From assembly GCA_965248435.1 (NCBI GenBank), contig OZ252100.1, positions 992,001-1,056,000 on the forward strand: a DNA stretch of 64,000 nucleotides, read 5' to 3'. The translations under genes and the position numbers were made by a program. The stretch comes from Candidatus Latescibacterota bacterium (GTDB lineage Bacteria > Latescibacterota > UBA2968 > GCA-2709665). Each line of letters starts with the position of its first letter. Position 1 is the stretch's first letter. The notes beneath the pieces are model-generated. The model searched no databases. It was not told the DNA's origin and was given only the letters and a program-made list of their open reading frames with translations. Shown one piece after another: positions 5,158 to 40,530 of this stretch.

Positions 5158-5166
5158 GATGTATCG

Positions 5167-5754: not shown

Positions 5755-5765
5755 TCGCCTTCATC

Positions 5766-7900: not shown

Positions 7901-8686
7901 TCATGCAATCAGCCCTCCATCTACGACCATGGCGTGTCCGGTAACGAAGGAGGCTTTCTCTGAGCAGAGCCATACGACTGCTTCGGCAACCTCGTCGGGA
8001 GTCCCTACTCTACCACTTGGCTCTTTCTGAATGTTTTGTTCTTCTAGCTTCACTCTTGCTTCTGGATTTCCGCCTGAAATGACATCGCCTAATCGCTCAT
8101 ACATCGGCGTACGAATTGTTCCTGGGCAAACCGCGTTGACTCGAATGCCCGCCTGAGCACATTCCAGTGCCGCTGTCTTGGTCAGACCAATAACCCCATG
8201 CTTACTGGCAATGTATGCGGGCAAACCTAGGCCACTTCCTGCCAACCCCAGTGTCGAGGAGGTGTTTACGATGGCGCCACTGCCCTGCTCAAGCATTTGG
8301 TGGAGTTCATGCTTCATACACAGCCATACTCCTTTGAGATTTACCCCGATGACCTGATCCCAGTTCTCCTCAGTACATTTGTGAGTGCGGGCCTGAATGC
8401 CTTCGATTCCAGCGTTATTGTGTGCGCAGTCTAATCGACCAAAGTTGTGGATAGTCTGGTTAATCAGTGCTTCAATGTCAGTGGCTTTTGTAACATCGGT
8501 TCGAAAGAAGAGAGCTTCGGAATCGGTTCTCTCGATCATGCGTGCTGTTTCTTCTCCACCTTCAGTGTCTATATCACCAATGATTACCCTTGCTCCCTCC
8601 CTGGCAAATGCTAGAGCCGATGCTCTTCCCATTCCAGAGCTTCCTCCGGTTACGAGCGCAACCTTGTCCACCAGGCACCCCGGCAT
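7901..8686 (-). CDS. Short-chain dehydrogenase/reductase
   Basis: TGGSSGMG, NNAG, YIASK. Confidence 0.95.
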   Translation of the reverse strand: MPGCLVDKVALVTGGSSGMGRASALAFAREGARVIIGDIDTEGGEETARMIERTDSEALFFRTDVTKATDIEALINQTIHNFGRLDCAHNNAGIEGIQARTHKCTEENWDQVIGVNLKGVWLCMKHELHQMLEQGSGAIVNTSSTLGLAGSGLGLPAYIASKHGVIGLTKTAALECAQAGIRVNAVCPGTIRTPMYERLGDVISGGNPEARVKLEEQNIQKEPSGRVGTPDEVAEAVVWLCSEKASFVTGHAMVVDGGLIA

Positions 8687-8697
8687 CTAGGTCTCTC

Positions 8698-9441
8698 TCA
8701 GGGTATTTTGAATACGAACAGGTCTACGGGCTCGAGGATCGGCCCGTCGGGCTGGGAATCCTCATCTCTTGCCATCGCCTCCAGTCCTTCTTCGAACTCT
8801 GAATCAGTGATGCTCGCCAGATCCGACAGAGCCCGTTGAGCAAGTTTTTCTCTGTACTCGTTGAATGATCCTGCGAATACCTGATTAATCACTGTGTGGT
8901 CAACTAGACTAAATCCATTCGCTTGAATGGTCCCGATAAGCTCCGATTTTCCAGGCAGCATTTTCTTTCCCACACGTCGGGCACTTGGAAAATACTTCAG
9001 ATACGGCACGCGATCATGCAGATCCAGGGTTGAGTTCCGGATACATAGCTTGCCACCTGCTCTGAGCACCCGGAACCACTCACGCGTCGCTTCGATCGGC
9101 TCAGTGAGGTGATGGAACACCATTGAGAGAAAGACTAAGTCAGATGAATCGTCTCTGATGGGGACAGCGTGAGTGTCTCCTCTGATAAATCTCACATTAT
9201 TTCCATCCGATCTGGCTTGGCTAAGCATTCTAAAGGAGGGATCGATCCCAATGAGCCTTGCGTTGAACCTTTCGGCAAGGGCATCAGAGAAGCGTCCTGT
9301 CCCACATCCAACATCTACAATACGCCTGACTGGTCCCACGATCAGATCTGCAATCGCATCCAGCCAGATCCTCAGTGTGGCTTCGGGGAGCTGCCTCGCC
9401 TTTACATAGGTGGCAGGTATGTCAGTGCGGTCGTATTCCAA
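8698..9441 (-). CDS. Class I SAM-dependent methyltransferase
   Basis: VDVGCGTG, MVFHHL, RVLRAGG. Confidence 0.9.
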   Translation of the reverse strand: MEYDRTDIPATYVKARQLPEATLRIWLDAIADLIVGPVRRIVDVGCGTGRFSDALAERFNARLIGIDPSFRMLSQARSDGNNVRFIRGDTHAVPIRDDSSDLVFLSMVFHHLTEPIEATREWFRVLRAGGKLCIRNSTLDLHDRVPYLKYFPSARRVGKKMLPGKSELIGTIQANGFSLVDHTVINQVFAGSFNEYREKLAQRALSDLASITDSEFEEGLEAMARDEDSQPDGPILEPVDLFVFKIP

Positions 9442-10138
9442 CGTTTGACTCAGGGTTCGCTTTGATATTCACGCAGATGTGATCGAAACTCAAGAAGATC
9501 CCTCTCAAAGCAATCTCCATAAGATCGTTTCTTCGCGTCCAGCATTGCGAGGCACGATCGTAGAAAGCGTAGTCGTCGGCATTCAACTCTCGAAATCTCT
9601 CAACTATCGACTCAGGAATCTTCGGAGATTGATAATCCCCAACATTCTCTCTGCTGTAGTAGAGATGTGGCCATTGGAACTGGTGATCCAATAGGACCAG
9701 AGACTCGTCAAACTGTTCTGTGACACCCACAAAGTCGTATCGCTCCATGGGACGCTTATCAAACCACTGTTTGAACCGGTTCTGACCGTACCCGGGAGGA
9801 TCTGGCCACCTAGGTGGTTCTGTGTTCGTCAGGAATACTCCGAGCCCTCGGTCAGTGAATCGTGCGCCAGGGTATCTCTTGGCAAAGAAATACATAGAAA
9901 TTGCTGAGCTGAGTGGTTCTCTCAAGAAGGTGATCCACTTCACCTTCCGGTGTGCGTTTATGGTGTCAGAAAAGTATTTAAAGACCCCGTGCCCGTGAAT
10001 GCACATAGGATTCTGAACTATGGGCCACTCTTCACTCTCGTCGTATGCCATCTGCAAGCGGTCCCCGAACCTCTGCTTGAGAAGCTGGCGGAATGTTATA
10101 CCGCCTGTCTTGGGAATATGCAGGCTTACATATAGCAA
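9422..10138 (-). CDS. Sulfotransferase family protein, probable frameshift near the 3' end
   Basis: LHIPKTGG PAPS motif, FLREP..S.Y, FVGVTEQFDESL, NADDYAFYD; an alternative frame from ~9547 reads AMLDAKKRSYGDCFERDLLEFRSHLREYQSEP*. Confidence 0.8.
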   Translation of the reverse strand: MLYVSLHIPKTGGITFRQLLKQRFGDRLQMAYDESEEWPIVQNPMCIHGHGVFKYFSDTINAHRKVKWITFLREPLSSAISMYFFAKRYPGARFTDRGLGVFLTNTEPPRWPDPPGYGQNRFKQWFDKRPMERYDFVGVTEQFDESLVLLDHQFQWPHLYYSRENVGDYQSPKIPESIVERFRELNADDYAFYDRASQCWTRRNDLMEIALRGIFLSFDHICVNIKANPESNVGIRPH

Positions 10139-10223
10139 TCTTCTCTCCCTGTCTCCTCGCTTCCTCTCCTCCGAGCCTCGCGTATGATGTAAGTAGGTGC
10201 CACAGACGTTTCCCCGGATCGAG

Positions 10224-10568
10224 CTATTTCGCCGCTAACGCGACAATTTCGATCAACGTATCTCCCTCCAGTTTCACTTCGACGCAAGCCCGTTGTGGCC
10301 AGTTGTCCTGCCCGATCCAAGGGTCCCATATCTCGTTGACAATAGGTTTCTTCTCAATGTCTGTGATGTAGATGGTTACGGAGACCAACCGGGTTTTGTC
10401 CGTGCCTGCTTCTGCTAGGTTAGTATCTAACTGCGCAAGCGCCTGCTCGGTCTGGCTCCTCAGATCTCCTGAAAAATCCGTTGCAATTACAGCCGTGTAG
10501 ATCAATCCATTGTGCTCGACGGATTCGCTTCGGCCAACGGCCTTGCCAGTATACCGCTTGATTGACAT
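10224..10568 (-). CDS. RidA/YjgF family protein
   Basis: QTEQALAQLD, NEIWDPW, PQRACVE, IEIVALA. Confidence 0.9.
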   Translation of the reverse strand: MSIKRYTGKAVGRSESVEHNGLIYTAVIATDFSGDLRSQTEQALAQLDTNLAEAGTDKTRLVSVTIYITDIEKKPIVNEIWDPWIGQDNWPQRACVEVKLEGDTLIEIVALAAK

Positions 10569-10618
10569 GCTCTATTCCTTATGTCGGAATCTGCTTATGC
10601 TCCCCAAGTCACATCCGA

Positions 10619-11389
10619 TCACCGCTCTTTCGTAGCGACTAAGAGAAATTCCCCTGGAAGCGACCTCGCTTCGTCTAGTTTCTCACCGAATCGCCAGGTG
10701 TCGTGGCTTGGATATTCTGAGAGGTGATTTATATGTAAACCCGAGGCCACCAAAGCAGTAATGATGTCACCGAGCGGCCAACTGAACTGATATTTCGTCT
10801 CCCGAGCGTCCTCCCCGCCTTCGAAATGCCTCCAGCCCGATCCCACGATAGGCTCCTTCCGACTGAAATAGTCGTCCTCCATGATCAATACTCCATCCTT
10901 CACAGAAAGACACGCAGCAACTGGGTGTCCCTCCAACAGAAGAAGGCGTCCACCCACACCCAATGCTGACGAGATATTCGTCGCCCAGACCTCAATATCT
11001 GGAATCCATACCAGAGAACCGCCTCCAGTATGGATGATGTCAAACCCCACTCCAGTAATATCCGCAGGCAGACAGCAAACATCCGCGACATGGAATGATA
11101 CGGGGATGCCGGCCTCCTCAGCCTTGTTTCGAGCGAGACTGATCTGTCGAGGACTTATGTCGACTCCCGTTGCAATTGCACCAAGGACGGCCCAGGAAAT
11201 TGCCTCTTCACCCGTGGAACACTGACATTGCAGCACAGTCTTTCCTGTAATCTCTCCGGCTGCCTCGATAAGGAGCGGACTCAACGTTGTGTTACCTGAA
11301 GCATAGTAGCCTGCCGGTTTGGTCCGTTTATGGCGAACTTCGGCAATCTCGTCCCATGCCCTAGCATTCTGCGATGTAAACTCTCGCAC
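10619..11389 (-). CDS. Class I SAM-dependent methyltransferase
   Basis: LQCQCSTGEE, GVDIS, GSLVWIPD, EGHP. Confidence 0.85.
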   Translation of the reverse strand: MREFTSQNARAWDEIAEVRHKRTKPAGYYASGNTTLSPLLIEAAGEITGKTVLQCQCSTGEEAISWAVLGAIATGVDISPRQISLARNKAEEAGIPVSFHVADVCCLPADITGVGFDIIHTGGGSLVWIPDIEVWATNISSALGVGGRLLLLEGHPVAACLSVKDGVLIMEDDYFSRKEPIVGSGWRHFEGGEDARETKYQFSWPLGDIITALVASGLHINHLSEYPSHDTWRFGEKLDEARSLPGEFLLVATKER

Positions 11390-11413
11390 AACTATACCCT
11401 CTTTCCATCACTC

Positions 11414-11962
11414 CTAGTCTTGCCACTCGCTTCTTAGAAGACCATACAGATGCATGTCGTGCCTCTCTCCGTCGCGTTCCATGAATTGTCTGAACGTGCC
11501 CTCTCTCTTAAAATTCATCTTCTCATACAAAGCAATTGCTCGGTCGTTGAAATCAAATACCGTTAACTGAAGTTTGATGAGATTGAGTTCTTTGATGGCA
11601 TAGTCGATAAGAAGCTCGGTGGCTTCCGTGCCGTATCCTTTTCCCCAGTCATCTGGATTCCCAATCCCAATGCCCAACCAGGCGACGCGATTCGGCCACT
11701 CGATCTCAGCTAGGGAAACAGTGCCGATGATCTCCTCTTGATCCAAAAGTCGAATAGCGAACACCAGTTCACGCTCTGTCTTTCCCAACCCGTCAATCCA
11801 TTCCTTGATCTGAGTCTCCGTTCGCTCCGTGATAGGATCGGAGCCCCAAAGCCTCAGGAATCGAGTGTCCTCCCGCCATTTGAGAATGGTTGAGACATCT
11901 TCCAATCTAAGCAGAGTCAAACGTATTAGGTTTCCGGCTAAAAGGTTTGTGGGATGATCCAT
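11414..11962 (-). CDS. GNAT N-acetyltransferase, RimJ/RimL type
   Basis: WGKGYGTEA, NDRAIALYEK, REGTFR; start moved to ATG 11962, which follows AGGAG. Confidence 0.9.
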   Translation of the reverse strand: MDHPTNLLAGNLIRLTLLRLEDVSTILKWREDTRFLRLWGSDPITERTETQIKEWIDGLGKTERELVFAIRLLDQEEIIGTVSLAEIEWPNRVAWLGIGIGNPDDWGKGYGTEATELLIDYAIKELNLIKLQLTVFDFNDRAIALYEKMNFKREGTFRQFMERDGERHDMHLYGLLRSEWQD

Positions 11963-12065
11963 GGTAGACTCCTGGTGAGGAGGTAGTGAAGGGCTTGGAG
12001 GATTCCTCTGCGACCTGTATGCCATTTTGACCGAGCCGTAAGACCGCAGCAATGCTATTGCTCAA

Positions 12066-12461
12066 TCATAATCCATAATGCATTGGCACCCTGGTGGCAG
12101 ACACCTCAAACCCACACTTCTTGTAAAATTCGACTGGACCTTCGGCAAGGAGCAGCTGCTGGAAGAAACCCTGGTAATTGGAGATGAGCTTCCGCATGAT
12201 CAGACTTCCAATCCCTTTTCCTTGATAGTCCGGCAACACCAGGAGGTGGGGGTAGTATACGACGAGTGATCCATCCGATATAGCATTACCGAGTCCAACC
12301 AGGGTATCTCCATCCCATGCCGTGACCAAGGAGTGTGAGTTTATGAGACCATCGTGCAATTCATTGGGCTTCTTGGCAGAAGACCACTTGTTGGCCTCGT
12401 ATAGCGGTAGAATGTGCTCTTTCGAGATGTCTCGGGTCTCTCTGAGTCTGATTCCTTCCAT
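12066..12461 (-). CDS. GNAT N-acetyltransferase
   Basis: LLVLPDYQGKGIG; FYKKCGF. Confidence 0.9.
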   Translation of the reverse strand: MEGIRLRETRDISKEHILPLYEANKWSSAKKPNELHDGLINSHSLVTAWDGDTLVGLGNAISDGSLVVYYPHLLVLPDYQGKGIGSLIMRKLISNYQGFFQQLLLAEGPVEFYKKCGFEVSATRVPMHYGL

Positions 12462-12476
12462 GACTACCTCACGAGC

Positions 12477-12998
12477 CTAATGGAGATACTCGCTCCTCAA
12501 CATTCGATAGAATGGCCAGCCAGGCTTATATTCCCCGTCCTGTTTGAACCCAACTTTCTCCAGAACTCTAATCGAAGCAACATTTCGTGAATGGACCCAC
12601 GTTTCAACCGACGGCAAATCCAATGTCTTGAAGCCATAGTTGACAGCTGCTGCAGCTAGCTCCGTAGCGAGCCCGCGGCCACAATAGCTAGGATGAATGA
12701 TGTAGATCAGCTCGTTCTTAGGTTCCTCGTCACGAGAATCCCGGGTTAGTCCACCCCATCCCACAACCATTGAGGTTTGTCTCAAGACAGCGACCCAGGG
12801 TGAGAACCCCTCAGGTTCAAGCAAAGACGCATGGTTTTCTAACCAAGCTTGTGTCTCCGCAAGAGACAGGGGTCTCTCTGGACCGATATACTTCATCGAT
12901 TCAGGATCTGAAAACGTGGAATAAAGAGCTTCATCATCCGAATCGATAGGATCTCTTAGGGTCAGTTGCTCAGTTTGGATAAGTTTCTGCATGGTCAT
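12477..12998 (-). CDS. GNAT N-acetyltransferase, RimJ/RimL type
   Basis: YCGRGLATE; NVASIRVLEKVGF. Confidence 0.9.
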   Translation of the reverse strand: MTMQKLIQTEQLTLRDPIDSDDEALYSTFSDPESMKYIGPERPLSLAETQAWLENHASLLEPEGFSPWVAVLRQTSMVVGWGGLTRDSRDEEPKNELIYIIHPSYCGRGLATELAAAAVNYGFKTLDLPSVETWVHSRNVASIRVLEKVGFKQDGEYKPGWPFYRMLRSEYLH

Positions 12999-13008
12999 AA
13001 CCAGCTTT

Positions 13009-13752
13009 TCAGTTCTTCCTCGCGGTAACTACCAATCTACTTCCTTCTCTCCCATACTCCCTGCCATCGAAACCCCCATACAGCTTAATCTCTTTAAATC
13101 CCACCTGCCCAAGACGGTCTTTCATCTCCTGCCCAGAATACACGGCAGTTGAAAACTTGAAACTGTGGGTTTGGCCATCCTTTATCACGATCCACTCGTT
13201 CCGAATCCGAGTCCAATCTTTAATCACCTCATGACGTTGAATCCAAAGGGTGCCATCTTCTAGTTCAGTTGAGCTTGTTGGCTGAAACACTTTGGCCAAC
13301 CACTCTTTGCTAACTACGTCGATCACACAAGAACCATCCGCCCTCAGATTGCAGTAGATATTATCCAGAACTTTCAGATTCTCCTCTTCCTTGTCAAAAT
13401 ATCCAAACGAGGTGAACAGGTTCAATACCAGGTCATAACTGTCCTCGCGGACAAACCTCCGCATGTCTTCCAAGATCCATTCAACCTGCACTTTCTCAGC
13501 AACCGCCCTTTCGCGTGCTTTTTCCAATAGATACGGCGTGAGGTCTACTGCTGTTACGTCCAGCCCTCTATGGGCTAACACCACAGAGTGCCTCCCCGGG
13601 CCGCAGCAGAGGTCTAGAACAGAATGACCTTCGAAATTCACCAGTTTCAGAACCTTCTCGACCTGTTCTTCTGCCTGTGCAAATCTCTTGCTTGGAAACA
13701 TGAGCGGATACATCGTAATCCAAAAAGATTCATCTTCAAACCAGTCAGTCAT
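13009..13752 (-). CDS. Class I SAM-dependent methyltransferase
   Basis: VLDLCCGPGRH; NLFTSFGYF. Confidence 0.92.
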   Translation of the reverse strand: MTDWFEDESFWITMYPLMFPSKRFAQAEEQVEKVLKLVNFEGHSVLDLCCGPGRHSVVLAHRGLDVTAVDLTPYLLEKARERAVAEKVQVEWILEDMRRFVREDSYDLVLNLFTSFGYFDKEEENLKVLDNIYCNLRADGSCVIDVVSKEWLAKVFQPTSSTELEDGTLWIQRHEVIKDWTRIRNEWIVIKDGQTHSFKFSTAVYSGQEMKDRLGQVGFKEIKLYGGFDGREYGREGSRLVVTARKN

Positions 13753-13767
13753 GTTAATCTCCGCAAG

Positions 13768-14307
13768 TCAAAGCTGATCGTTCAGGGGCGCCTGAATCAA
13801 CCGCGACATCTCGTACTCAAACAAGGCGCAATCGTTTGGGTACGGCTCTGTGCGTCCAGTCTTTTTGAATCCGATTCGCTCATAGAAATCGATAGCTGAG
13901 TTGTTGTTGCAAGTCACCATCAGCAGCAAAATGTGAACTTTCCGTGCACGTGCCCAGTTCAGAACACCATCGACCAACAAACGACCCACACCTAAGCGTC
14001 GCTGATCTGGTGCGACCCACATCGATACGAGATGCGCTCTCGTATTGTCTAGCTTGTCGAGAAATCCAGCGACGATCCCGCACGAGATGTCCCCGTCCAT
14101 AGCTAGATAGGTAGTTGAATTCGCACCATCCCTCTCTGCTGCATGTTTAATCCACTCGGGGTCGGTAAGCTGAGACTCCTTAGCATAGGTAGATCCGAAT
14201 GCTCCGGGCGAATCTTGCAAGGCTCGCAATCTTACATCCTTGAATGTCATGGCGTTCCGACGGGCGACCGCAACAAGCGTGACCATAGGCTGCCTTTCCG
14301 CTAACAT
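13768..14307 (-). CDS. GNAT N-acetyltransferase
   Basis: SMWVAPDQRRLGVG; AIDFYERIGF; true start may be ATG 14286. Confidence 0.9.
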   Translation of the reverse strand: MLAERQPMVTLVAVARRNAMTFKDVRLRALQDSPGAFGSTYAKESQLTDPEWIKHAAERDGANSTTYLAMDGDISCGIVAGFLDKLDNTRAHLVSMWVAPDQRRLGVGRLLVDGVLNWARARKVHILLLMVTCNNNSAIDFYERIGFKKTGRTEPYPNDCALFEYEMSRLIQAPLNDQL

Positions 14308-14376
14308 TCTTCGATTTGATTTGAGTGCTCATCCAACACATAGCTCCCATAGAGTTTCCCAACTCGAAACCGAATC

Positions 14377-14796
14377 CTACAAAAGTTTCCTGAAGTAGGT
14401 AGCGGACTCTTCATATCCGATTGCTTTATAGAAGTCTTCAGCTCTGCGTGTAGCCAATGCAATCAGCCTTGAGTCCCTTTCCTTAGCTTTTTGTTCAATC
14501 ATTACTACAAGCTCTCTGCCTATTCCTTGGCCTCGGAACTCATCCTCCACAAAAAGCTCCTCGATCCAGGTCACGATCCCATTCGCGAAAAAGGTCAGGT
14601 GGTGGAATGCGAGAACATACCCGACCGGTGAGCTGCCCCGTTCCGCTACTAGAAGGTCAGCGTTTGGATCTGCTAGAACATCTTCAATCGATTTGACGAA
14701 TGAACCTGTTCGTGTTTCGAAGCTTGAGGCGAACTTTCTAACCAAAACGAGCAGTAAGTCCCTGTCATCGCTCTGGGCTTCTCTAATACCAACCAT
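14377..14796 (-). CDS. GNAT N-acetyltransferase
   Basis: ELFVEDEFRGQGIG; FYKAIGY. Confidence 0.9.
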   Translation of the reverse strand: MVGIREAQSDDRDLLLVLVRKFASSFETRTGSFVKSIEDVLADPNADLLVAERGSSPVGYVLAFHHLTFFANGIVTWIEELFVEDEFRGQGIGRELVVMIEQKAKERDSRLIALATRRAEDFYKAIGYEESATYFRKLL

Positions 14797-16750: not shown

Positions 16751-17710
16751 TCACACTTTCTTTGGTCGCTTTGGGCGCGATCTTCCACTGCTATAAATAG
16801 GATACTCGTAGCCCTTCAGAACGTTATCGACTGTATCGTTCTGCCCAGACCCGGCCCGAGGTCGTCGAACAGTCTGCCTCTTTCTATGCTTACTGGCCCT
16901 TTCAAGGGCCGCCTTCGCCTTCCCGAATACGACTCGGCTGATGATGGGCTCGTGTTCCCCTTTCACCTTGAGGTCAGCATGCCGGACCACACCAATATGG
17001 AAGTCATTGGTGAGCATATCGTGTAGGGCCTGCCAAGAGAACGGCTTCCCCTTCCGGTTCTTGACGTCCATGATCTTGAGATATCGTTCGAGTGCCCTGA
17101 TTTGCCCGACCTTCAGGAAGGCCCTGAAGATCTTCTTCACCTGGGGGGCCTCTTCAGGATGGGGCTCGATGAATTTCTGAATGTTCCTTCCATCTACCTT
17201 TGTTGCCCACATGTAGCCGTATGGGGCCTCACCACAGGGCTTGAGGCCCTTCAGGGCCCTTGCCCGTCTGCCACGTTTTAGACGCTGAGCGATCACTAGC
17301 CTCTCCCAGGCATTGAGCAGCCCGATCATCCCACTCACCAGAAACTGGTTCGGGTCGTTTTCTGAGTAAATCGTGAAAGTGGGCTCATCGACAGCCCTGA
17401 TATCTTTCTTAACGTCTCTCACCGCCTTGATGATCATGGCCTGGGGATAGATATCTCTCCAGAGCCTAGAGGTCGAAGCGGTGACGATATAGTCGATATC
17501 GTTCAGATTCCCGAGCATCGCCTCAAGCCTCTCCCTTTCGAGGCTCGCCCCCGAAACAGCTTCATCGACGTATTCCTCGAGAACCCTGATCTGGTTGGCC
17601 GCGCAGTAATCTCTGCAGAGCCTGAGTTGAACATCGAGGCCCTGACCATCGAGCTGGGTCCCTGTTGAGACCCTGGCGTAGATATGAGCCCGCTTCTTTC
17701 GTTGTGCCAT
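16751..17710 (-). CDS. Serine recombinase (resolvase catalytic domain plus recombinase DNA-binding domain)
   Basis: IYARVST catalytic Ser, DEAVSGA, SRLWRD, ER..I.QRL..GR, GEAPYGY, HEPIISR; the ORF track start at 17749 is probably too far upstream. Confidence 0.92.
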   Translation of the reverse strand: MAQRKKRAHIYARVSTGTQLDGQGLDVQLRLCRDYCAANQIRVLEEYVDEAVSGASLERERLEAMLGNLNDIDYIVTASTSRLWRDIYPQAMIIKAVRDVKKDIRAVDEPTFTIYSENDPNQFLVSGMIGLLNAWERLVIAQRLKRGRRARALKGLKPCGEAPYGYMWATKVDGRNIQKFIEPHPEEAPQVKKIFRAFLKVGQIRALERYLKIMDVKNRKGKPFSWQALHDMLTNDFHIGVVRHADLKVKGEHEPIISRVVFGKAKAALERASKHRKRQTVRRPRAGSGQNDTVDNVLKGYEYPIYSSGRSRPKRPKKV

Positions 17711-17755
17711 CTGCCAATTTCCTTGTAACATTCTGTTGCCATTAACCACTTGTCG

Positions 17756-21529: not shown

Positions 21530-22992
21530 TCAATTCGCTGGTCTGCAGTTGTGCTTTGTTTTTCCTGTTGGTGCTGGCCCCGTTCGTTTGTTCGCTTGGC
21601 CGATATGTCTTACAGCCCAGCAGTTGTTATCGTGGTAGAGGTTGCTGTTTTTGCTCCAGGTGAACGAGGGAGTTCCTTGAGGTGGTGGAGTGTTGTGGGT
21701 GAACCATATGGGCGCTGTCCAGGCGTCGTCGTTGAGGTCGTCGCGTTTCCTGTCTGATCCTCTTTCGCCGGTGTCGTTTATGGTAATGTCCGTTCCTTGG
21801 CCCTTTGGATTGTCTTTGCCGTTCTCTTCGGTGATGTGGAGATAGAGGTATTCTCCACTTACGACTGGCACAGGGATTGTGTGTTGTTACCTCCTCTTAG
21901 AATGTGCGTGTCCCAAGTACTTGCTTGTCGTCCGCCGATGCCGTCTGGGTCGCTGACGATGCTGACCGTGTAGGGACCTTCGTCTGTCGAATCTCCGTCT
22001 GAGCCTGTGCTTTGCCAGATCTTGACTAGAAGTTCAACGTCAGCTTCAGCTATTTGGAGGGGCACGGTATCTCCCATCCAGTACGTATTGCCGTTGTAGC
22101 GCGCCTGGAATGCCACGACGAGTTCATCGTCTTCAGTGGCGTAAGCTCTGTTTGCTTTGAATCCGTTCACAAGGCCTTGGAATGAGACCTCGTTGGCCCA
22201 TACGGCTGTTCGTGCCGCAGATACGGTTCCCCAGTTGGTTCGATGTGTGTCTTGGTTGGCTGAGGGTGCGATGTGAAATCCATAGTTGAGAAATCGTTTG
22301 TAGTAATTCTCCCATTGGGCGTCCCGGTGGACCTTGTCCTCGCTTTCCTTATCGGGCCCATTGAGGTGGCCTCCCGCGACGCTGGTGATGATTGAGATCG
22401 TTTTGATCACAGGGTCAGTTGCGCGCACGAAGGCTTGCGAGCTGTCATAGAGTGCGATTCCGAAGTTGCCTACTCGCCTATTCCTGTTTGATTTCCGCTT
22501 CCATCCATGAGGATGATTAAGTTGGACGAATTCCGCGTGTTGTTTTGCCCACTCGTAGAGATCATCGTAGTCTTTATCTTTGATCCTGTCCGGTGGCGGT
22601 GTCCTTGAGCCGAAAATGTTGAGGTGGTTGCCTGTTGCAGTGTTGCCCCACTCTATAGCCGGGACCGCCACGAACTCTCCCGCGTGGTCGCTGTTGTACT
22701 GCATGGCAACGTCATAGAGGAGCGTCTTGTATTCCTGCCGTGTCATGCTGAGCCTGTGAGAGCTATCAGTTGCTTTGTGGTGGTCAGTGATAGCCAGGAA
22801 GTCCAGGCCGTTTTGGTGGGCATAGGGGAATGCCTTGTCGGGGAGCATTTCGTCGCCAACATGCTTGATGTCATCTGAGAGTTTTGAGTGCGCATGTAGG
22901 TTTCCGAAGAGAACAACCTTGTCGTCATGGCTTGGCTTTTCCGCCCAAGCCGTCGTGCTCAGAGCGATGATGATGAACAATAGTCGCGTCAT
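21530..22992 (-). pseudogene. Secreted PHP-domain (CehA/McbA-like) metallohydrolase split by a frameshift
   Basis: Signal peptide, GNLHAHS, ITDH, NHP, QDTH in 21859-22992; the expected C-terminal YLYLHI..DAWTAPIW is in the overlapping frame 21530-21871. Confidence 0.7.
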
Positions 22993-23083
22993 GGATTCCT
23001 CCTCTGTCTATTAGGATTGGCGTAGATGTGGAGAATTGAGCTTGCTTCTGGATTCAACCTTGTTTCACGTCTCAGTCAGGAAT

Positions 23084-23307
23084 AAAAAAAACCCAGAGGC
23101 TGTCCTGCCATCTAGGACGCATCTGGGTTTCATGAAAAGCACCTACATAGGCGACGATTCCTCCCCGGCAGAAACCTTGCCTCACCACACAGAGTGCGCT
23201 CAGTCTAAATCGTCATAGACCGGATTGGCTCCGCGGAATACCATTTGAAATCTGGATTCCGGACGCCGCCAAACTTAAATTTGCAACTGTTTCCCCAGTT
23301 TTGTCAA
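23084..23307 (-). promoter_or_regulatory. Promoter, structured leader and terminator unit, copy A
   Basis: TTGACA at 23307-23302; GGCGGCG/CGTCGCC closing stem; terminator ACCCAGA...TCTGGGT plus T-run; homologous to 28663-28841. Confidence 0.75.
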
Positions 23308-23388
23308 AGCTTTTTTTGATTGTGTCATAGATGAGGCTTCTAACTGAACTCCGGACATATTCGGGATCCCCTCCGGGAGAGGTGAGTC

Positions 23389-23542
23389 TCATCCGTAGCG
23401 ACCCGCCTGAGTGGCGAACATTTCAGCATATCGGCCTCCGTGGTTGACTAGCTCCTCGTGGGAACCCTGTTCAATCAACCTGCCTTTGTGCAAGACCAAG
23501 ATATGGTCGGCCATCCGAACCGTTGAGAATCGATGCGAAACC
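23389..23542 (-). pseudogene. 3' remnant of an ABC transporter ATP-binding gene
   Basis: Translates as VSHRFSTVRMADHILVLHKGRLIEQGSHEELVNHGGRYAEMFATQAGRYG* with no upstream portion. Confidence 0.85.
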
Positions 23543-23715
23543 TTCAGAAAGGAGCCCACGGCCAGGGCTCTACTGAAAGACCGAGGACAACTGTGATGGA
23601 GTCTCCTCTCGGGAAGGGTTTCTGAGAAGCCACAAACACGTTATAGAGAGCAACCAGCCGAGCCGTCCCCTCGACGAAGACCTTAAGGCGTGACCAGCTT
23701 AAGAACAGTTAGCGA

Positions 23716-25413
23716 TCAAACGACCAAGCGAACGAATGAAGGTACTCCGGTTCCAAGTTTTCCTCGCAAAAGCAATCTTGCAAGACGTAGTCCTGCTTTA
23801 AGCCAACCAAGAGGTGGGGTAAGGAGCTCGACTACCAATGGAATCGCTCTGGAGAGAAAAACAGATGTTTCGAGAAAAGCTCCAGCCGTGGCGTCGATTT
23901 TCTTAACGTGCGACCCGATGTCCTCTTGGTTGAGAGTGTTCTCGATCCTACTCACTGCATCAAAGTCAAAATCGAAGTCGGTGGTGAGCCCTGCCGTGGT
24001 GATGATCCGCTTCCCAAAAATGAATCTGATCGCGGTCCTAAAAGTCTCATACGCTTCTTTGATCTCAGCAATCAGCGATTTCGCTCCGTTCTTTACCCAC
24101 CGAAAGAAATCATGGATCGCGGATAGGACGGCCGAGATTCCTTGCTTGATTACCTGGGCAATCTTCCCGAAGAACGCTCTCAGCCCACCCCAGAATCCAC
24201 GTCCGTTCCTGGTCTTCCTCTTGTGTTTCCTTTGTTTAGCCTCCTCGACGAGTTCCTCGTCGATTAGATCGCTCAGGCCAACGTAGAAACCATTCCGGTC
24301 GGGGGCCCGTATCCCTTCTGCAATCGAATCAATCTCTCTCGAGATGGAAGTTCTTCTCCCGTACACAGCATCTACACTCTGAAAGACGGAACCGAAAAAG
24401 AATTTTGCATTAATAGCCCAGTGATTCCTACTGAGCTTTATGAGAAAGGACTTCTCATCTACGACGGGGGACGTTTGGTTGTAATTGACCATCTGTGCGA
24501 AATGCTCAATTGCTTGGTGACTCAAGCTCCCCATGTCATTATCGAGTTTTCCAACATATGTACCCTGAAGCCACAGCCTAAGCTGCACGAGCCTAATGAC
24601 CAACCTATTGACTTCGTCCTCTTCGAAAGCCCGTACTTCGTCAAATTCGCCTCCTCGCAAACCTCTCTGAGTTCTTCTTCTTACGGGACTGTTTGGGATC
24701 TTTCTGAGTATGTATCTGGTTGCCTTGTCGATCAGAGGCACGACAGAGCGATTCGCTTTTTGAGGGAGGAGTTCGAATGACTCAGAGAGGAGTTTTCTGA
24801 CATTGCGGTACTTCCCTACTTCAGACCAGTCCGATCTCTGGAAGAACACCACCCCGAAATAGCTACTCCCTTCAAATTCGTCCATCTCGTTGATTCGTCT
24901 GATGAGTGAAACGACATCTCCAGCTAGTTCGATGACCCGACTAAGAGATCGTACGGACAACCAACCTTTTAGTTTCGCAAGTGCGGATTCTGCACTCTCG
25001 GTAACGACTGGCCCAGCCTTTTCTGGCACTATTGACAGAGCGCTGAGTCGGTAGGCTAGAATGCGAGAGAGGATTCTGTCGCCTGATATCTCCGAAAGCG
25101 AGAATTGGTGAAGAGCGAACTCATTTTCCAAGGAGCTGATGCGCCCAAGGAATGCGACTTCCTCTGGTGAGAGAAAGGGTGATTCGACAGTCGCCGGCTT
25201 CGGTTCGATGATCGTGGCTGAGAGATCTGACCGGAATTCGACAATGCCCTCCGCGACCTCCGCAGGCGATGGTCGTTGGTCCGAATTCTGGTAGATATCG
25301 ATGTATCCCAGATAGTCCAGAAGTTCTTCGGATTCATCCTGCTGTACGTCTTCAAATCGACCAGTTGTAAGCCCCTGAAAAATCTCTGAATCGAATGTAT
25401 CCAGGATGCTCAT
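23716..25413 (-). CDS. Hypothetical protein with peptidoglycan-binding-like segments and an amphipathic C-terminus
   Basis: 565-aa ORF; RLVQLRLWLQGTYVGKLDNDMGSLSHQAIEHF resembles the PG_binding_1 pattern. Confidence 0.6.
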   Translation of the reverse strand: MSILDTFDSEIFQGLTTGRFEDVQQDESEELLDYLGYIDIYQNSDQRPSPAEVAEGIVEFRSDLSATIIEPKPATVESPFLSPEEVAFLGRISSLENEFALHQFSLSEISGDRILSRILAYRLSALSIVPEKAGPVVTESAESALAKLKGWLSVRSLSRVIELAGDVVSLIRRINEMDEFEGSSYFGVVFFQRSDWSEVGKYRNVRKLLSESFELLPQKANRSVVPLIDKATRYILRKIPNSPVRRRTQRGLRGGEFDEVRAFEEDEVNRLVIRLVQLRLWLQGTYVGKLDNDMGSLSHQAIEHFAQMVNYNQTSPVVDEKSFLIKLSRNHWAINAKFFFGSVFQSVDAVYGRRTSISREIDSIAEGIRAPDRNGFYVGLSDLIDEELVEEAKQRKHKRKTRNGRGFWGGLRAFFGKIAQVIKQGISAVLSAIHDFFRWVKNGAKSLIAEIKEAYETFRTAIRFIFGKRIITTAGLTTDFDFDFDAVSRIENTLNQEDIGSHVKKIDATAGAFLETSVFLSRAIPLVVELLTPPLGWLKAGLRLARLLLRGKLGTGVPSFVRLVV

Positions 25414-25643
25414 AGGCGAGACCTAAATTTCATGGTGATTCTCACGAAACGAATCAAACTCAGGCCGAAATCCCTCACAGAATCAGGCAATCTGTCAGGA
25501 ACACGAAGATCGTTCTCGTCTAAGACGATATCTGGTTGCGATGCTGGGAGAACTGCCCTGATCCTCGAGAAAATGTCTCTGTTACTCAGTCCCTCTATAG
25601 AGAGCCTCACTTGCCCGGAAAAGAAATAGAACCTTACGATCAC
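25410..25643 (-). CDS. Small hypothetical protein
   Basis: 77 aa; ATGA overlap with the downstream gene. Confidence 0.5.
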   Translation of the reverse strand: MIVRFYFFSGQVRLSIEGLSNRDIFSRIRAVLPASQPDIVLDENDLRVPDRLPDSVRDFGLSLIRFVRITMKFRSRL

Positions 25644-25664
25644 TCTTCTGTCAGCGCCTTTAGA

Positions 25665-26213
25665 TCAACCTAATCTGAGTAGCTTCATAACCGTATCGAA
25701 TAGTGCCTTCCGGGATTCCTGCGACGCGGCAACTAGCTCCTTGTGGAAGGCCGCAAGATCCCTTAGAGATTCGTTGTTGTTGACGTAATGAATAGAATCT
25801 CCTTCGATTTCAAACCGAGAGTATGCAACCAGCTGCACATTGGCGCCTCCAAGGATATCTTGCATCTTTGAGAAAGTGTCCTTGGGATCGTACAAACCTA
25901 AGGCCATCTCTATATCCTTCACTATCTTCTGCTGCGTCTTAACGGCGGATTTCAGGCTCTTTATCTTGCTCTTCCTATCGGCCTTCTCAGTCTCATCATC
26001 GGGATCCTGGAGAGGAGTCGCAATTGTCGTGACGAGATCTCCCCTGAGACGATCCAGTTCTTGTGTCTGTGCGTCCACTTTATCCTGATCCGCTTGTGGT
26101 AGGGGTTGTTTGGCGAGACTTACTGGTACTTCTCCAACATTCGTCAAGGTCGCGACCTCAAGGCTAACAAGGTCTTCTGCCACGTCCTTCAGATAGTCGA
26201 GCACTCCGGGCAT
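25665..26213 (-). CDS. Hypothetical protein, paralogue of 26249-26488 with a coiled-coil insert
   Basis: DLVSLEVAT...VAYSRFEIEGDS...FHKELVAASQESRKALF; start after AGGTGG. Confidence 0.7.
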   Translation of the reverse strand: MPGVLDYLKDVAEDLVSLEVATLTNVGEVPVSLAKQPLPQADQDKVDAQTQELDRLRGDLVTTIATPLQDPDDETEKADRKSKIKSLKSAVKTQQKIVKDIEMALGLYDPKDTFSKMQDILGGANVQLVAYSRFEIEGDSIHYVNNNESLRDLAAFHKELVAASQESRKALFDTVMKLLRLG

Positions 26214-26248
26214 CTGGATTCCACCTTTCTTACAGATGTGTGGACGGC

Positions 26249-26488
26249 TTAGGTTAGTGAAGCTATCAGAGAAAGAACTGCAAGTTTGCACTTCTGAGCG
26301 GCAACGGTCTGTGACAGGTGGAGCTTCAGAACTGATGACAACTCACTATCGGGTAAAGTTGGCAACCAGCTCAACGAATCCGCCTCGATCTCAGTTTTCG
26401 TGTAGGCGAGGACGGCCTGATCAACGGCTACAGCAGTTTCCGTTGATGTCAAGTCAGATACGAGAGCATTAAGCTGTTCCATGAGCAT
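26249..26488 (-). CDS. Small hypothetical protein, paralogue of 25665-26213
   Basis: DLTSTETAV...LAYTKTEIEADS...LHLSQTVAAQKCKLAVL; GGAG upstream. Confidence 0.7.
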   Translation of the reverse strand: MLMEQLNALVSDLTSTETAVAVDQAVLAYTKTEIEADSLSWLPTLPDSELSSVLKLHLSQTVAAQKCKLAVLSLIASLT

Positions 26489-26512
26489 AGAAGATCTCCC
26501 AGGGTGGGTTAG

Positions 26513-26692
26513 TTAGAACGAGCGAATCACGACGCTGACACGTATTGCGTGGTGCTGGAGGGGGAGGCAGCGGTCCCCCAGCTGGGTGTAGTAAGGCCTC
26601 GAAATTCCCATCCTCTCAGCCAAGTCTTGGGCCCTTAACCCTCGCTTTTCCCTACATTTCCGGATCCTACTCCTGATTTGGCTCAGAATCAT
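26513..26692 (-). pseudogene. Truncated XRE-family HTH regulator
   Basis: RIRKCREKRGLRAQDLAERMGISRPYYTQL, after which the similarity stops; inverted repeat AATGTAAC/GCTACATT upstream at 26743-26763. Confidence 0.7.
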
Positions 26693-27052
26693 AAATTCAC
26701 CCCCATTTCTCAGTATGGATGATTTACTTGCGAACTCTACTGAATGTAACACATTGCTACATTAGTCAAGAGAAATCAACGGGGCAGCCCGAATGCGAGC
26801 CGGCCCATCAATGTGGCCTGAAACAAGAACCCTAATTAGGAGATAGTGAAATGAGCACCGTATCTATTGAAGCTCTTCACCGTGCCAGTCGATGCCGCCA
26901 CAAAGGCTGAAGCATATTATCGCGAAATCTGGGCGAACTGGCTGGATGGCCCGCTCCAGCTTGTCGTGGCCCATTTGGAATTGTCCTATTTCAGGTTGCT
27001 AAGCAGCTGCATCCTCTTCCTCACATTCGGCACAATTGGCTTAACCCATCTA

Positions 27053-28468
27053 TCACAAATTGAGGAAATAGGAAAGGACTGTGAATTGCGACAGTCTCAG
27101 ATGTCCGTCTTCTTCGACCCACTGATTCTCGGAGAAATCTTGAACATAAATCCAAATTCTCTTCTTCCTCGTGAGCCGATCAATCACTCCGAAGGCGAGG
27201 CGTCTTGCTCCCTCAGCGAATTCGTTACGTATCCTATTCGCCGTGCCCCCGTCCAAAACGTCATCCCATAGGTTGTGTAGATCCACGTCCGCATCAAACC
27301 TGGCCCATGCCGCGGTATACTCAATACGACCATTGATGGCGCCCAACAAGAATGTTACGGTAAGGAGCATGTTCTCCATATTACCATGACGCGCTCCGCC
27401 GCTAAGACCCCCACCGGAACATATCGGTTCAAACTCTGGGCCGTTTTCCTCAAAGAGGAACTGCGCGACCATATACCGTTCGCCTGAAAGCGAGAACCTT
27501 GGATGCGTGCCTCGATTCTCGTCCAATGAGGCGCTCGTCTCCTCTTCTACCGGGTCGATTGAATTAACGTCGAGAATCCCAGTTTTTCTAAAATTAGGCA
27601 CATTGTCAGGACATCTAGGATCGTCAGAATTGTCTCCACATCTTGGGTCGTCTGCTCCATAGCAACGTGGGTTGTATTGGGCTGTAAAATTGCCACGATT
27701 TCCAAGTGTCTCGGTCCAGCTATTGTCCTCACCATGGCTAATGTGAATCTTTATGCTTTCAAACACCCGGCGCATTCCCGCCACAGGACTGCCGTCGTAT
27801 ATTGTCAGGGGTTCATCCCACCAAGTGGGCGGGAGAGTAACTGTCTCTATGGGGACCGGACTTGGGTAGCAGATCTTAACGGTGTGAAGTTTCTCATCCT
27901 CCTCGCTAGTTCTTGGACGCATATCTGTAACCACGACTTTCCACCAACCCTTTGGATCTGATTCAGTGAGGCTGTGGGAAAGCTCTGCCAAACCAAGGGA
28001 ACGATCGAGTTCTGCGTCAAAAGCCCTGCTGGCAACGCGGCTCATACCTCCGTTCCCGTCAGGCCTGAACAACTGGATCCTTCGTGGGGTCTGCTCCTCG
28101 CGACTAAGAGCTCCTGTTGATCCAAGCTCTACCAGAGTCGTCGCAGCCCGGGATTCGATGGAGACAATACCACAAGTGGCTACGGGAAATCTGACCTCCA
28201 TGGACCCTCCTTCGCTGAGGTCCGCACTTCCATTCAGACAGGATCGCACCCATCTTCGACCGTCGCAGGTGAGCATATCGCTTGTTGAATCCGGGTGTCG
28301 GATCAACACCAGTGACACTTCGCCGGTCAAATGCCCTTCCTCAGCACCCAGCTGGTCGTCCTTTCTGTTGAAAAATGCCTCCTGTTTCGGAGACTGACAT
28401 CCCACTAAAGCCGCAACAACGACAAATGGGATGCCTTTTCCAATTACCAACAGACATATTCTATTCAT
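27053..28468 (-). CDS. Hypothetical lipoprotein
   Basis: Lipobox-like AALVGC; internal (N/D)PRC x3 repeat. Confidence 0.65.
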   Translation of the reverse strand: MNRICLLVIGKGIPFVVVAALVGCQSPKQEAFFNRKDDQLGAEEGHLTGEVSLVLIRHPDSTSDMLTCDGRRWVRSCLNGSADLSEGGSMEVRFPVATCGIVSIESRAATTLVELGSTGALSREEQTPRRIQLFRPDGNGGMSRVASRAFDAELDRSLGLAELSHSLTESDPKGWWKVVVTDMRPRTSEEDEKLHTVKICYPSPVPIETVTLPPTWWDEPLTIYDGSPVAGMRRVFESIKIHISHGEDNSWTETLGNRGNFTAQYNPRCYGADDPRCGDNSDDPRCPDNVPNFRKTGILDVNSIDPVEEETSASLDENRGTHPRFSLSGERYMVAQFLFEENGPEFEPICSGGGLSGGARHGNMENMLLTVTFLLGAINGRIEYTAAWARFDADVDLHNLWDDVLDGGTANRIRNEFAEGARRLAFGVIDRLTRKKRIWIYVQDFSENQWVEEDGHLRLSQFTVLSYFLNL

Positions 28469-28662
28469 GAGGCTATCTCTTTTTTGATGGAGCGAGCACA
28501 TCTAACGGACCGGGCACTGGCACACCGCGCTGGCGGGTAGCGCTGGGGCCCGGGTGCCCGCCGACTCAGTGCTTCGCTCACTACTTGCCAGATTTTCTCC
28601 AAAATCGGTTCTTTACTGAGTGAGGCGCCAAAACCGACCGGCCTGCTTATGTATTCTGAAAC

Positions 28663-28841
28663 AAAAAACCCAGAAGGCAATCCCGTGATCCGGAACGCAT
28701 CTGGGTTCACTAAAAGCCCTACATAGGCGGCGATCCCTCCCGACAAACTTACACGTTTCCGCTACCACAGAATCCCGACTTTATATCAGGATTCCGGACG
28801 CCGCCGAGTTCAATTTGCAACTGTTTCCCCAGTCTTGTCAA
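28663..28841 (-). promoter_or_regulatory. Promoter, structured leader and terminator unit, copy B
   Basis: TTGACA at 28841-28836; GGCGGCG/CGCCGCC stem; GGAATCC/GGATTCT hairpin; terminator plus T-run; homologous to copy A. Confidence 0.75.
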
Positions 28842-29394
28842 GTTTTTTTTAAAAGATGCGATCTTCATCAGAAAAAACTAATTCATCCACTACGAGCCAT
28901 TAAAGGCCATCCAGTGATTCGATTAACCATAGCCCATTACTTATGAAGCACAACTCTAAAAATGTTCATAAAACTGCACTTTGTCTTAGAATGTGCACAA
29001 AGAAAGGCGCAGATTGCTTAAAGCCAGCGTCTTAAGAATGAGGAACTACTAGGAGAGTGTATGTTATTGCTTGGGAATCTCTAGGCGCCCCCGGAGAATG
29101 AAGGAACATATGTAACAATTTCTGAAGCAGCTATTCATAGAGACCTAGAGCGCATAGATCATGGATTGAAGAAGAATGTTTGACCTATTGAAGAAACTAT
29201 TCAGCACATAGTGGGAATAAGAATCTCAACCAGCATATTGGAGAACGCAGAGCTTTCTAGTGTGGTCTCTATCCACCGAGAAAACCCTTGCATTTTGTGT
29301 CGCACACCGCGAATTTCTAACAAGAAAAATCTCCAATCCATCTAGTCCCTGATTCCTTAACCTTTGCCAATACAATCTGTACTATTATCCCCGC

Positions 29395-35309: not shown

Positions 35310-36185
35310 CTATCGATTCCGAAGGAGCAAGACAATTATGGAGAGGAGACGATGGAAGAGGAAATCGATTTGACTGGCCTGCTGAATCTTCGGCTTTGAG
35401 GTCTCTGAGTGCCTGATCTGAAATTGATTGCCTATGTCTGTAAGGTCTTGAGCTTCCTCTTCCAGTACTTGACGAAACATAGGCTCTGAAGCCGACTTGT
35501 TGAGTATCTTCATAAAGCTATCCTTCTTGTCTTTCCCAGGCTCGAGCGTCTTTAGACGTTCCCAAGCATCCCAGAGCTTCTCTATAGCCTCACGACGAAC
35601 GGCGACATCTGCATTGACGATTTTGCTGATGGCAGTTTCGAGCATTTCATCAAGTTCACTATCTCCGGCGCTAATGACTGTTTCCGTGACTAGCTCATGC
35701 AAACCCGGTGGTAGAAGACGCTCAACACACCCCTTCTCGCTCAGTTGAAAGGCAATACCATTACGGGCAAATATTCGGTTGACATCATCTCTGAAGGAAA
35801 GTTGACCGGCCTCTCGGTCAAAAGTCAGGTGATAGTGGTCATAGAACTTGTGGAATGATCTTTGGATGGGCTCAGCTACGTGAGAATAGCAGAATTCCAA
35901 TAGATCCAATACACCTAGCAGAGGAGGTCGTTCCTGGACATCGAGAGGCCAAAAGACATCCTGGATCTCAGCTTGCAGAGCCAAGCCTATAGTATTCGAG
36001 TCAGTGGCAATACATCCTGGCCTTTCAGGATCAGGACACTGCTCAGGGAAGTCAATTCCGAATGCTCCAGTGGAAACTCGACTTTGAACATTGGAGACGA
36101 TTCCACCCCACACCTGCTGAGATATCTCTTCAGTTATCCGAGGCCCCTGGCCCATTTCTCTGTCACTGAAGTAATTGTCTCGCAT
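35310..36185 (-). CDS. AbiJ-like protein (NTD4-type N-terminus, HEPN-like C-terminus)
   Basis: YFSDRE, LDLLEFCY, VNRIFARNGIAFQL, AIEKLWDAWERLKT, GNQFQIRHSE. Confidence 0.7.
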   Translation of the reverse strand: MRDNYFSDREMGQGPRITEEISQQVWGGIVSNVQSRVSTGAFGIDFPEQCPDPERPGCIATDSNTIGLALQAEIQDVFWPLDVQERPPLLGVLDLLEFCYSHVAEPIQRSFHKFYDHYHLTFDREAGQLSFRDDVNRIFARNGIAFQLSEKGCVERLLPPGLHELVTETVISAGDSELDEMLETAISKIVNADVAVRREAIEKLWDAWERLKTLEPGKDKKDSFMKILNKSASEPMFRQVLEEEAQDLTDIGNQFQIRHSETSKPKIQQASQIDFLFHRLLSIIVLLLRNR

Positions 36186-40038: not shown

Positions 40039-40530
40039 TTAGGGTTTGATTAATGGTATCATACTGGCGATCATTTTCGCTCTTGAGACATCTTCTCTGC
40101 AGATCACCTGATTCCGCGCGTTCAGGAAAACCGCCACAAAGTACTCCTTCCTGCGGTCCTTGATGTCGGACACGATCGGCACGAGATCCGCTGGGCTCGT
40201 GATCGTGGGCGCGATTCCGATTCCTTTTCCAAGTCCTCTGCGCGAGAATTCGAACGCCGCCATCATCCCTGCGGCCTTCGCGCGTCCGATCCCCTTGATC
40301 CGCGTCAACTCGGCGAGGCCCATCTTCATCAACTCCTCCGGCGAGCGCTTCACGAGGATCTCCGAGGCGATCTCCAGTACGTTTTTCCCCTCATAGCCGG
40401 TTCTGAGCAAGACAGCGAGCAGCTCCTCATTACGGAGTGCCTCTGGTCCCAACCGCTCCATCTTCTCGCGGGGCAGGTCTATGTCGGCAACACCGGGAAA
40501 TCCCTCACGCATACTCATACACAAAGCCAT
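40039..40530 (-). pseudogene. radC: radC (JAB/MPN family), 3'-truncated at about 40084
   Basis: PREKMERLGPEALRNEELLAVLLRTG, IKGIGRAKA, KEYFVAVFLNARNQVI..DVS, then an unrelated tail; HPRE and HNHPSG are absent. Confidence 0.9.

Follow-up and report, generated by a model that had tools for sequence, protein, structure and literature searches.

The window analysed here is a 64-kb stretch of the genome of a Candidatus Latescibacterota bacterium. It contains two copies of a unit that consists of a promoter-like element, a structured leader and a predicted terminator. Copy A (23084–23307) and copy B (28663–28841) both lie on the minus strand, at the positions given by an earlier note made from the sequence alone. 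Copy A is followed, 91 nt past its U-tract, by a gene for a CehA/McbA-family PHP-type metallohydrolase of 377 aa with a signal-peptide-like N-terminus (21859–22992, minus strand). Copy B is followed by a gene for an orphan protein of 482 aa with a lipobox-like LVGC (27053–28501, minus strand), which has no Pfam, NCBIfam or PADLOC match. Both products agree with the exported proteins, a hydrolase and a lipoprotein, that the note had assigned to these genes.

The two copies share the same order of blocks. A 30-nt promoter block, TTGACAA(A/G)ACTGGGGAAACAGTTGCAAATT (23278–23307 in A and 28812–28841 in B), is followed by GGCGGCGTCCGGAATCC, a variable middle, a 24-nt block, GGGAGG(A/G)ATCG(T/C)CGCCTATGTAGG (23142–23165 in A and 28718–28741 in B), and a long hairpin with a T-run. 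When up to three mismatches were allowed, each long block had exactly two matches in the window and none of 100 shuffles matched. The block match between A and B is not explained by chance. The mean column identity of the two copies was 77% in a MAFFT alignment, where the roughly 45 extra nucleotides noticed before in copy A appear as a 42-column insertion. The differences that had been described as preserving pairing are real, and they lie in the stem P1, the GGAAUCC hairpin and the terminator stems. CGUCGCC of A and CGCCGCC of B each pair with GGCGGCG, A using one G–U pair; the loop of the GGAAUCC hairpin differs between the two copies; and for the inner stem of the terminator A has GUCCU/AGGAC where B has UUCCG/CGGGA.

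The leaders match no Rfam family, and the note had likewise recognised no riboswitch consensus in them. Rfam 15 gave no match at the gathering score across the window, and at E ≤ 10 over 22800–29200 it gave two chance-level matches, both elsewhere and none on copy A or B. The 5S rRNA model (RF00001) also had no match on the two copies at E ≤ 10, and the single 5S gene of this genome lies elsewhere. The 3′ end of this 5S rRNA (GGGAGAGUAGGUCGCCGCC; L058:1501–1617, minus strand) closely resembles GGGAGGGAUCGCCGCC of the copy B leader (window 28726–28741), a likeness between GC-rich closing helices which may be due to chance. No description of such a leader family was found in literature searches, which covered open-access full text.

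A family of ten leaders

When this genome was searched by BLAST, copy A found only A and B, and copy B found copies C and D. Because BLAST with A or B reached only A–D, covariance models were needed for the remaining copies: the fifth, E, was recovered with a model of B and C, and F and G with one of five copies. The family contains ten members, seven in this genome (A–G) and one each in the genomes G004, G054 and G056, and all family-wide statements below rest on these ten related sequences. The likeness of A and B therefore stands, but not their description as a two-copy duplication, since the pair belongs to a ten-member family.

Few relatives carry the family, and its distribution beyond this genome is patchy. 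The search of the order matched 2 of 53 genomes (this genome, G000, and G004), the search of the class matched 4 of 132 and added G054 and G056, and a sample of the phylum matched 3 of 151. No member was found in G001, the other genome of the same genus. A third covariance model built from all ten members (R3) gave no new true member. Its match in G040 was rejected as a false positive, being a real 5S rRNA gene with its terminator. Scanning the genome contigs for the conserved terminator pattern returned ten loci, of which only L039 is a member; its score and coordinates are identical to those of the G056 locus, so the two were counted once. The same pattern in metagenome contigs returned six loci and no member.

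A degenerate eighth unit, H, is located about 1.2 kb upstream of copy C (G000:C1:5002808, plus strand; L020 ~3809–3900). It has a promoter of the same type, a hairpin with GGCGGCGUCAGGAGG (GGCGGCG) and then the five-codon frame AUG UAC GCA ACC UGU UGA. It lacks a terminator, and a transaldolase/FSA-like gene follows directly.

Downstream of each of the ten members, 24–307 nt past the U-tract, a co-directional open reading frame (ORF) begins. The ten encoded proteins belong to different families or to none. The consistent position of the leader before unrelated genes, first described for two copies, is thus found in every member.

Conserved parts of the leader

In nine of the ten members, and also in H, TTGAC(A/G) is followed 17–18 nt on by a YANNTT hexamer. 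In copy A (promoter 23278–23307, minus strand) the −35 element TTGACA (23307–23302) and the −10-like CAAATT (23283–23278) are separated by an 18-nt spacer, and in copy B (28812–28841, minus strand) the same two elements occupy 28841–28836 and 28817–28812. The sequence GGCGGCG lies about 7 nt past YANNTT in six of those nine members and in H. This spacing suggests that the RNA probably begins with the 5′ strand of P1, and TTGACA keeps a constant distance from that RNA start in nine of the ten members. The spacer contains a perfect palindrome, AACTG-N6-CAGTT (window 23285–23300 and 28819–28834; L031 ~1375–1392), which is a candidate operator for a DNA-binding regulator. The spacer core CTGGGGA(A/G)ACAGTTG is common to A, B and the copy in G056, a genome from another family of the class.

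P1 is formed by GGCGGCG and CGYCGCC around an interior of very variable length and sequence. On the minus strand, its 5′ strand (GGCGGCGUC in both copies) occupies 23262–23270 in A, at the inferred RNA 5′ end, and 28797–28805 in B, where the predicted pair probabilities are 0.89–0.99. The 3′ strand is CGUCGCC at 23150–23156 in A and CGCCGCC at 28726–28732 in B. The hairpin P2 lies inside P1 at 23235–23260 in A (GGAAUCC ... GGUAUUCC, minus strand) and at 28770–28795 in B (GGAAUCCUGA ... UCGGGAUUC, minus strand). Between B and C, P2 shows G–C to C–G and A–U to G–U changes. The GGAAUCC hairpin is present only in A–D (4/10), and competing folds of the 5′ domain are present in A and C. Throughout the ten members, the leader has only P1, a G-rich motif and an AUG in common.

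The compensatory stem changes proposed from A and B are also seen over ten members. In the ten-member alignment, standard pairs occupied 92.6% of the cells, versus 39–56% when the partners were slid by 1–3 columns, and 16 pairs changed on both sides, with none of 500 shuffles reaching these values; the counts come from a model-fitted alignment of related sequences and lean to the structure of the model. In P1, 90.6% of the pairs were standard and 4 of 9 pairs changed on both sides. For the terminator helix the values were 94% and 9 of 17.

The G-rich motif (GGGAGG or similar) abuts the 3′ strand of P1 on its 5′ side, and in each of the ten the AUG comes shortly after this strand, with a maximum gap of 6 nt in F. 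The motif resembles a Shine-Dalgarno (SD) sequence. The 16S rRNA of this genome ends in ...CACCUCCUU, and the calculated duplex with this 3′ end was −10.5 kcal/mol for copy A (GGGGAGGA, 23159–23166, minus strand) and −10.8 kcal/mol for copy B (GGGAGGGA, 28734–28741, minus strand). The duplexes of the ten members span −5.5 to −11.0 kcal/mol, seven of them being at or below −9.4, on par with the SD sequences of the downstream genes, while random ATGs had a mean of −2.5 kcal/mol and only 2.6% of them reached −8.

A stop codon directly follows the AUG in six members: UAG in A, B and D, UGA in C and the G004 copy, and UAA in G. The resulting start-stop mini-ORF AUG-UAG is located at 23143–23148 in A and 28719–28724 in B, both on the minus strand. 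An AUG with a stop behind an SD-like motif explains the unpaired invariant TATGTAGG of the earlier note. Its AUG is present in all ten members; the second block called invariant, GTGGT, did not hold and is confined to the longer copies. The four members without a start-stop have frames of 5, 37, 98 and 209 codons. In E, four sense codons are followed by UGA on the first bases of the terminator stem, giving a five-codon frame. In F the frame is open through the terminator and in phase with the downstream gene (L029:1556–2185, plus strand), and in the G054 copy a 37-codon frame has an AUGA overlap with the downstream start codon (L032:1556–1670, plus strand). The frame of the G056 copy continues through the hairpin. 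Since the leader frames of F and G054 are joined to the main gene, translation from the leader AUG may feed into it.

No regulatory codons of a leader peptide were found, there being no sense codon after the AUG in six members and four in E. A conserved leader peptide running through the terminator was considered and rejected, as second starts close to the base of the stem (AUG, GUG or UUG, in some copies) were in different frames by eye. When the genome was scanned for SD-ATG-stop sites with a terminator, 14 of 452 sites were retained; three of them are members and the others resemble ordinary gene ends. The P1 3′ strand of copy A can alternatively fold into a small hairpin (23140–23153), CGCC-UAUGUA-GGUG followed by CUUUUC, and the G054 copy has a similar predicted hairpin with a U-run. 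Hairpins of this type may be a pause or an alternative structure around the AUG.

A GC hairpin with a U-tract, predicted to act as an intrinsic terminator, is present in 10/10 members. In A it is the minimum-free-energy hairpin at 23084–23130 (AAACCCAGAUGCGUCC...GGACAGCCUCUGGG and U8, minus strand), and in B it is located at 28663–28710 (GUGAACCCAGAUGCGUUCCGG...CGGGAUUGCCUUCUGGG and U6, minus strand). Its distance from the AUG is restricted: counted from the A of the start codon, the first C of the terminator GC core lies 15–24 nt away in every member. The six start-stop copies leave 5–14 nt between the stop codon and the start of the stem.

Neither minimum-free-energy nor constrained folds of the ten members gave a terminator/antiterminator alternative. 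Pairing of the P1 3′ strand with the terminator 5′ half, where GCGUCC resembles the P1 5′ strand, was rejected as an antiterminator; it could be drawn by hand with about seven interrupted pairs and was never a predicted fold. Pairing of GGGGAG with the pyrimidine-rich linker (CUUUUC, CUUCCC), as a pseudoknot or anti-SD, is possible in about seven of ten members by hand alignment; it carries little information because it consists mostly of G–U and A–U pairs.

Proposed ribosome-dependent attenuation and other readings

The units are likely to be leaders that act in cis and carry a conditional terminator, whatever its trigger may be. The earlier note named two possibilities, a new riboswitch or an attenuator, and inferred a portable cis-regulatory unit. 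A portable unit of promoter, leader and terminator is supported, with a position before genes in 10/10 members, but the unconserved interior makes a ligand riboswitch unlikely. The parts that are conserved are those which a ribosome would read, and they are kept at a fixed distance from the terminator. For this reason, we propose that the units are portable transcription attenuators in which termination is relieved by a ribosome at the SD-AUG site, and give this model a probability of about 0.45.

In this model, a sigma-70-like promoter (TTGACA, 17–18 nt, YANNTT) would produce an RNA whose first bases, GGCGGCG, are the 5′ strand of P1. P1 would enclose the variable interior, and its 3′ strand would sit between the GGGAGG SD-like motif and the AUG. 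By default, polymerase would stop at the intrinsic terminator and release a short leader RNA. A ribosome that binds at the SD-AUG site would park on the start-stop, or translate the short frame into the hairpin. Standing against or on the base of the terminator stem, it would hinder folding, and RNA polymerase would enter the gene. P1 would compete with the ribosome for the spacer and could thereby set a threshold. If ribosome occupancy relieves the terminator, the likely input is ribosome availability or dwell time, which would reflect growth rate or translation stress.

Several observations weigh against this model. A consensus promoter and terminator scan missed the promoters of A and B as well as their long terminators, and because it gave no call, we infer promoter function from the elements described above. 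The pair counts lean to the structure of the model, as mentioned, and the support for P1 from thermodynamic folding is uneven: in its aligned register P1 is dominant only in B and F and reaches about 50% in D, and the minimum-free-energy folds of E and G have P1 in a shifted register. A P1 that is formed first should occupy the SD-AUG spacer and block 30S binding. The SD-AUG spacing is 7–16 nt, mostly 9–13, which is longer than in the downstream genes. The start-stop is missing from 4/10 members, among them both members outside family f1. When a ribosome footprint was imposed on the folds (−15 to +15 around the AUG unpaired), the hairpin was kept in 8/10 members and the terminator was altered only in F and G004. 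Since the hairpin survives the modelled footprint, a ribosome could act only through a steric or kinetic effect, which would lie at the limit of the range reported for E. coli. Finally, the downstream genes show no theme suggesting control by ribosome availability.

Known attenuators provide comparisons for the ribosome-dependent model. Jaurin et al. (Nature 290:221; cited in PMC3660660) reportedly proposed in 1981 that ribosome binding at the ampC leader cuts termination, which leads to growth-rate-dependent expression. The ampC leader of E. coli K-12 (NC_000913.3) contains AUG-UAA, then 4 nt, a GC hairpin of GGCCCGCC and GGCGGGCC, and a U-run. As in six of the ten leaders here, its promoter-proximal intrinsic terminator is preceded by an AUG and a stop; the comparison is about how the parts may work, and homology is not claimed. 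Unlike ampC, this family has a strong SD-like motif and a P1 clamp whose 3′ strand is the SD-AUG spacer, its gap between stop and stem is longer (5–14 nt), and it occurs in multiple copies before unrelated genes in a different lineage.

The ribosome-dependent model also resembles the trp, his and pheL attenuators, in which the ribosome position on a short leader frame decides the action of an intrinsic terminator. Antibiotic-responsive attenuators with upstream ORFs share this dependence on ribosome position; vmlR (PMC9226507) is an example. In contrast to leader-peptide attenuators, the family has no regulatory codons (0–4 sense codons in 7/10), no 2:3 antiterminator was found in its folds, and the downstream genes are not biosynthetic. 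For the E. coli terminator tR2, passages of PMC4824070 report that a stop codon a few bp upstream lowers termination from ~90% to <10%, that a stop at 17–18 bp gives a termination efficiency of 0.12 or 0.8 depending on sequence, that the effect is lost by ~30 bp, and that ~10–15 nt of free RNA is required between the A site and the hairpin. From tR2 and pyrBI, as covered by the same passages, a stop within ~5–18 nt of a hairpin lowers termination there, and the 5–14 nt of the six start-stop copies falls in that range. The ribosome at tR2 and pyrBI comes from a real gene or a leader peptide, whereas 6/10 members here would involve no elongation. Start-Stop sites detected in E. coli by Ribo-RET, which consist of an SD-like motif, an AUG and a stop, bind ribosomes and tune expression slightly, according to the parts of 10.1101/520783 that describe them. 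As described there, those sites are inside coding genes and act on translation, whereas the start-stops here are in a 5′ leader before a terminator. Ribosome-dependent attenuation and start-stop sites are already known, and the ampC leader has both. What is new is the clamped ribosome-binding site, the geometry kept fixed across diverged copies, and the reuse of the cassette before unrelated genes in a little-studied lineage. The resemblances to a boxA-like linker, to HutP- or TRAP-like triplet repeats and to a CsrA site are only loose.

Two other explanations place the action in a factor or in the RNA itself. A protein or processive antitermination factor (Q-, put-, LoaP-like or sequence-specific RNA-binding) could recognise conserved sequence in the leader or the promoter and let polymerase pass the terminator, with the AUG and the G-rich motif as binding determinants. 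In lambda, the promoter PR′ is followed by a short terminated RNA (6S RNA, ending at tR′) and then by genes, and the units have the same layout. The terminator 5′ half AACCCAGAUGYGUCC is near-invariant in A–D and the G056 copy where the rest of the RNA has diverged, A and B have the spacer core in common with the distant G056 copy, and the G056 copy lies before a GH19-like peptidoglycan hydrolase gene. This explanation is nevertheless unlikely: no candidate factor was seen, the genes beside B and the G056 copy are unrelated, and it leaves unexplained both a post-AUG codon that varies only among stops in six members and the gene-like anti-SD match of the G-rich motif. It is improbable that the terminated leader is itself the product and acts, possibly besides a cis role, as a trans-acting small RNA (sRNA) or as a decoy for ribosomes or proteins. 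Some sRNA families are multi-copy, and seven paralogues are present in one genome here. Each copy is equipped with a promoter-like element and with a strong terminator ending in a U-tract, and between P1 and the terminator a conserved stretch, CCUAUGUAGG ... CUUUU, is predicted to be single-stranded. sRNAs derived from attenuators are known, for example rnTrpL (PMC7968998). The placement of the units, on the other hand, is neither stand-alone nor independent of the neighbours, as 10/10 are co-directional with the nearby ORF, which has no evident promoter of its own, and the leader frame is joined to the downstream gene in F and G054.

A metabolite riboswitch, with P1, P2 and P3 as a three-way-junction aptamer and the terminator as expression platform, has the usual layout of P1 followed by a terminator in its favour. 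B and C fold like such a junction with purine-rich junction strands, and compared with shuffled sequence the leaders have the better folds (z-scores −2.5 and −3.9). But the core is not conserved, P2 being present in 4/10 members and the interior differing in length and sequence, the folds show no antiterminator that competes with the terminator, no Rfam family matches, and the downstream genes have no pathway in common, which makes a riboswitch very improbable. The same grade is given to a reused "mobile" promoter with a leaky terminator, which would provide low constitutive expression of new genes without conditional control and of which the AUG-stop would be a harmless remnant. In its favour are the patchy occurrence of the family among relatives and the location of A and B in an orphan-gene island beside a serine recombinase; homologous upstream regions before non-homologous genes are widespread within and between genomes (PMC3575422). 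Unlike such mobile promoters, the unit combines the promoter with a structured leader, a mini-ORF and a terminator; the AUG, the SD-like motif and the AUG-terminator spacing are kept in highly diverged members, and compensatory changes maintain the stems.

The ribosome-dependent attenuator can be taken one step further. The ribosome-binding site clamped by the 5′-terminal helix and the elongation-free start-stop, at a set distance from the terminator, may form a portable sensor of ribosome occupancy, which would couple horizontally acquired accessory genes to the translational state of the cell. This extension is doubtful. Its inputs could be growth rate, ribosome-targeting toxins or antibiotics, release-factor supply or phage takeover. 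If it were true, the family would be the first start-stop-based regulon in bacteria, a cassette copied by evolution before new genes. If the attenuator model is true, the 1981 ampC idea would be revived as a general and portable design, bacterial start-stop elements, so far limited to weak tuning of translation inside E. coli genes, would gain a clear regulatory job, and one small cassette would be seen to place newly acquired genes under a global signal. The self-contained unit, about 230 nt long, could then also be of use as a compact synthetic-biology part. Should the ribosome model fail, the family would remain a structured leader RNA with compensatory changes, hitherto undescribed, from a lineage that is poorly studied.

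Downstream genes and genomic setting

The link to surface or secreted genes, suggested from A and B, did not extend to the family. Only some of the downstream products are exported. Copy C precedes a gene for a pentapeptide-repeat protein with an apparent hydrophobic C-terminal tail (by eye), copy D one for a patatin-like lipase, copy E one for a MarC-family membrane protein, and copy G one for a DUF1016/SNase nuclease. The genes after copy F and the G004 copy encode orphans. The G054 copy is followed by a gene for a small lipoprotein-like protein, and the G056 hydrolase carries a peptidoglycan-binding domain in addition to its GH19-like domain. These mixed products suggest that the unit is portable, without specificity for exported proteins.

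Copies A and B belong to one same-strand gene array within an orphan-gene stretch at about 19–40 kb of the window. The surrounding region (16751–40530) starts with a large serine recombinase gene (16751–17749, minus strand), behind which the ORFs of about 20 kb have no Pfam family. It also contains genes for an AbiJ_NTD4 protein (35310–36185) and a RadC-like UPF0758 protein (40039–40530). The recombinase at the flank together with the orphan, AbiJ-like and RadC-like genes indicates that the stretch is probably a genomic island. A check of the neighbour genes for defence systems with PADLOC gave two marginal matches only. Elsewhere in the window, 1704–14796 is an unusually dense run, on one strand, with at least seven genes for small GNAT acetyltransferases and at least four genes for S-adenosylmethionine (SAM)-dependent methyltransferases, among which glyoxalase, histidine-phosphatase and RidA-like genes are interspersed.

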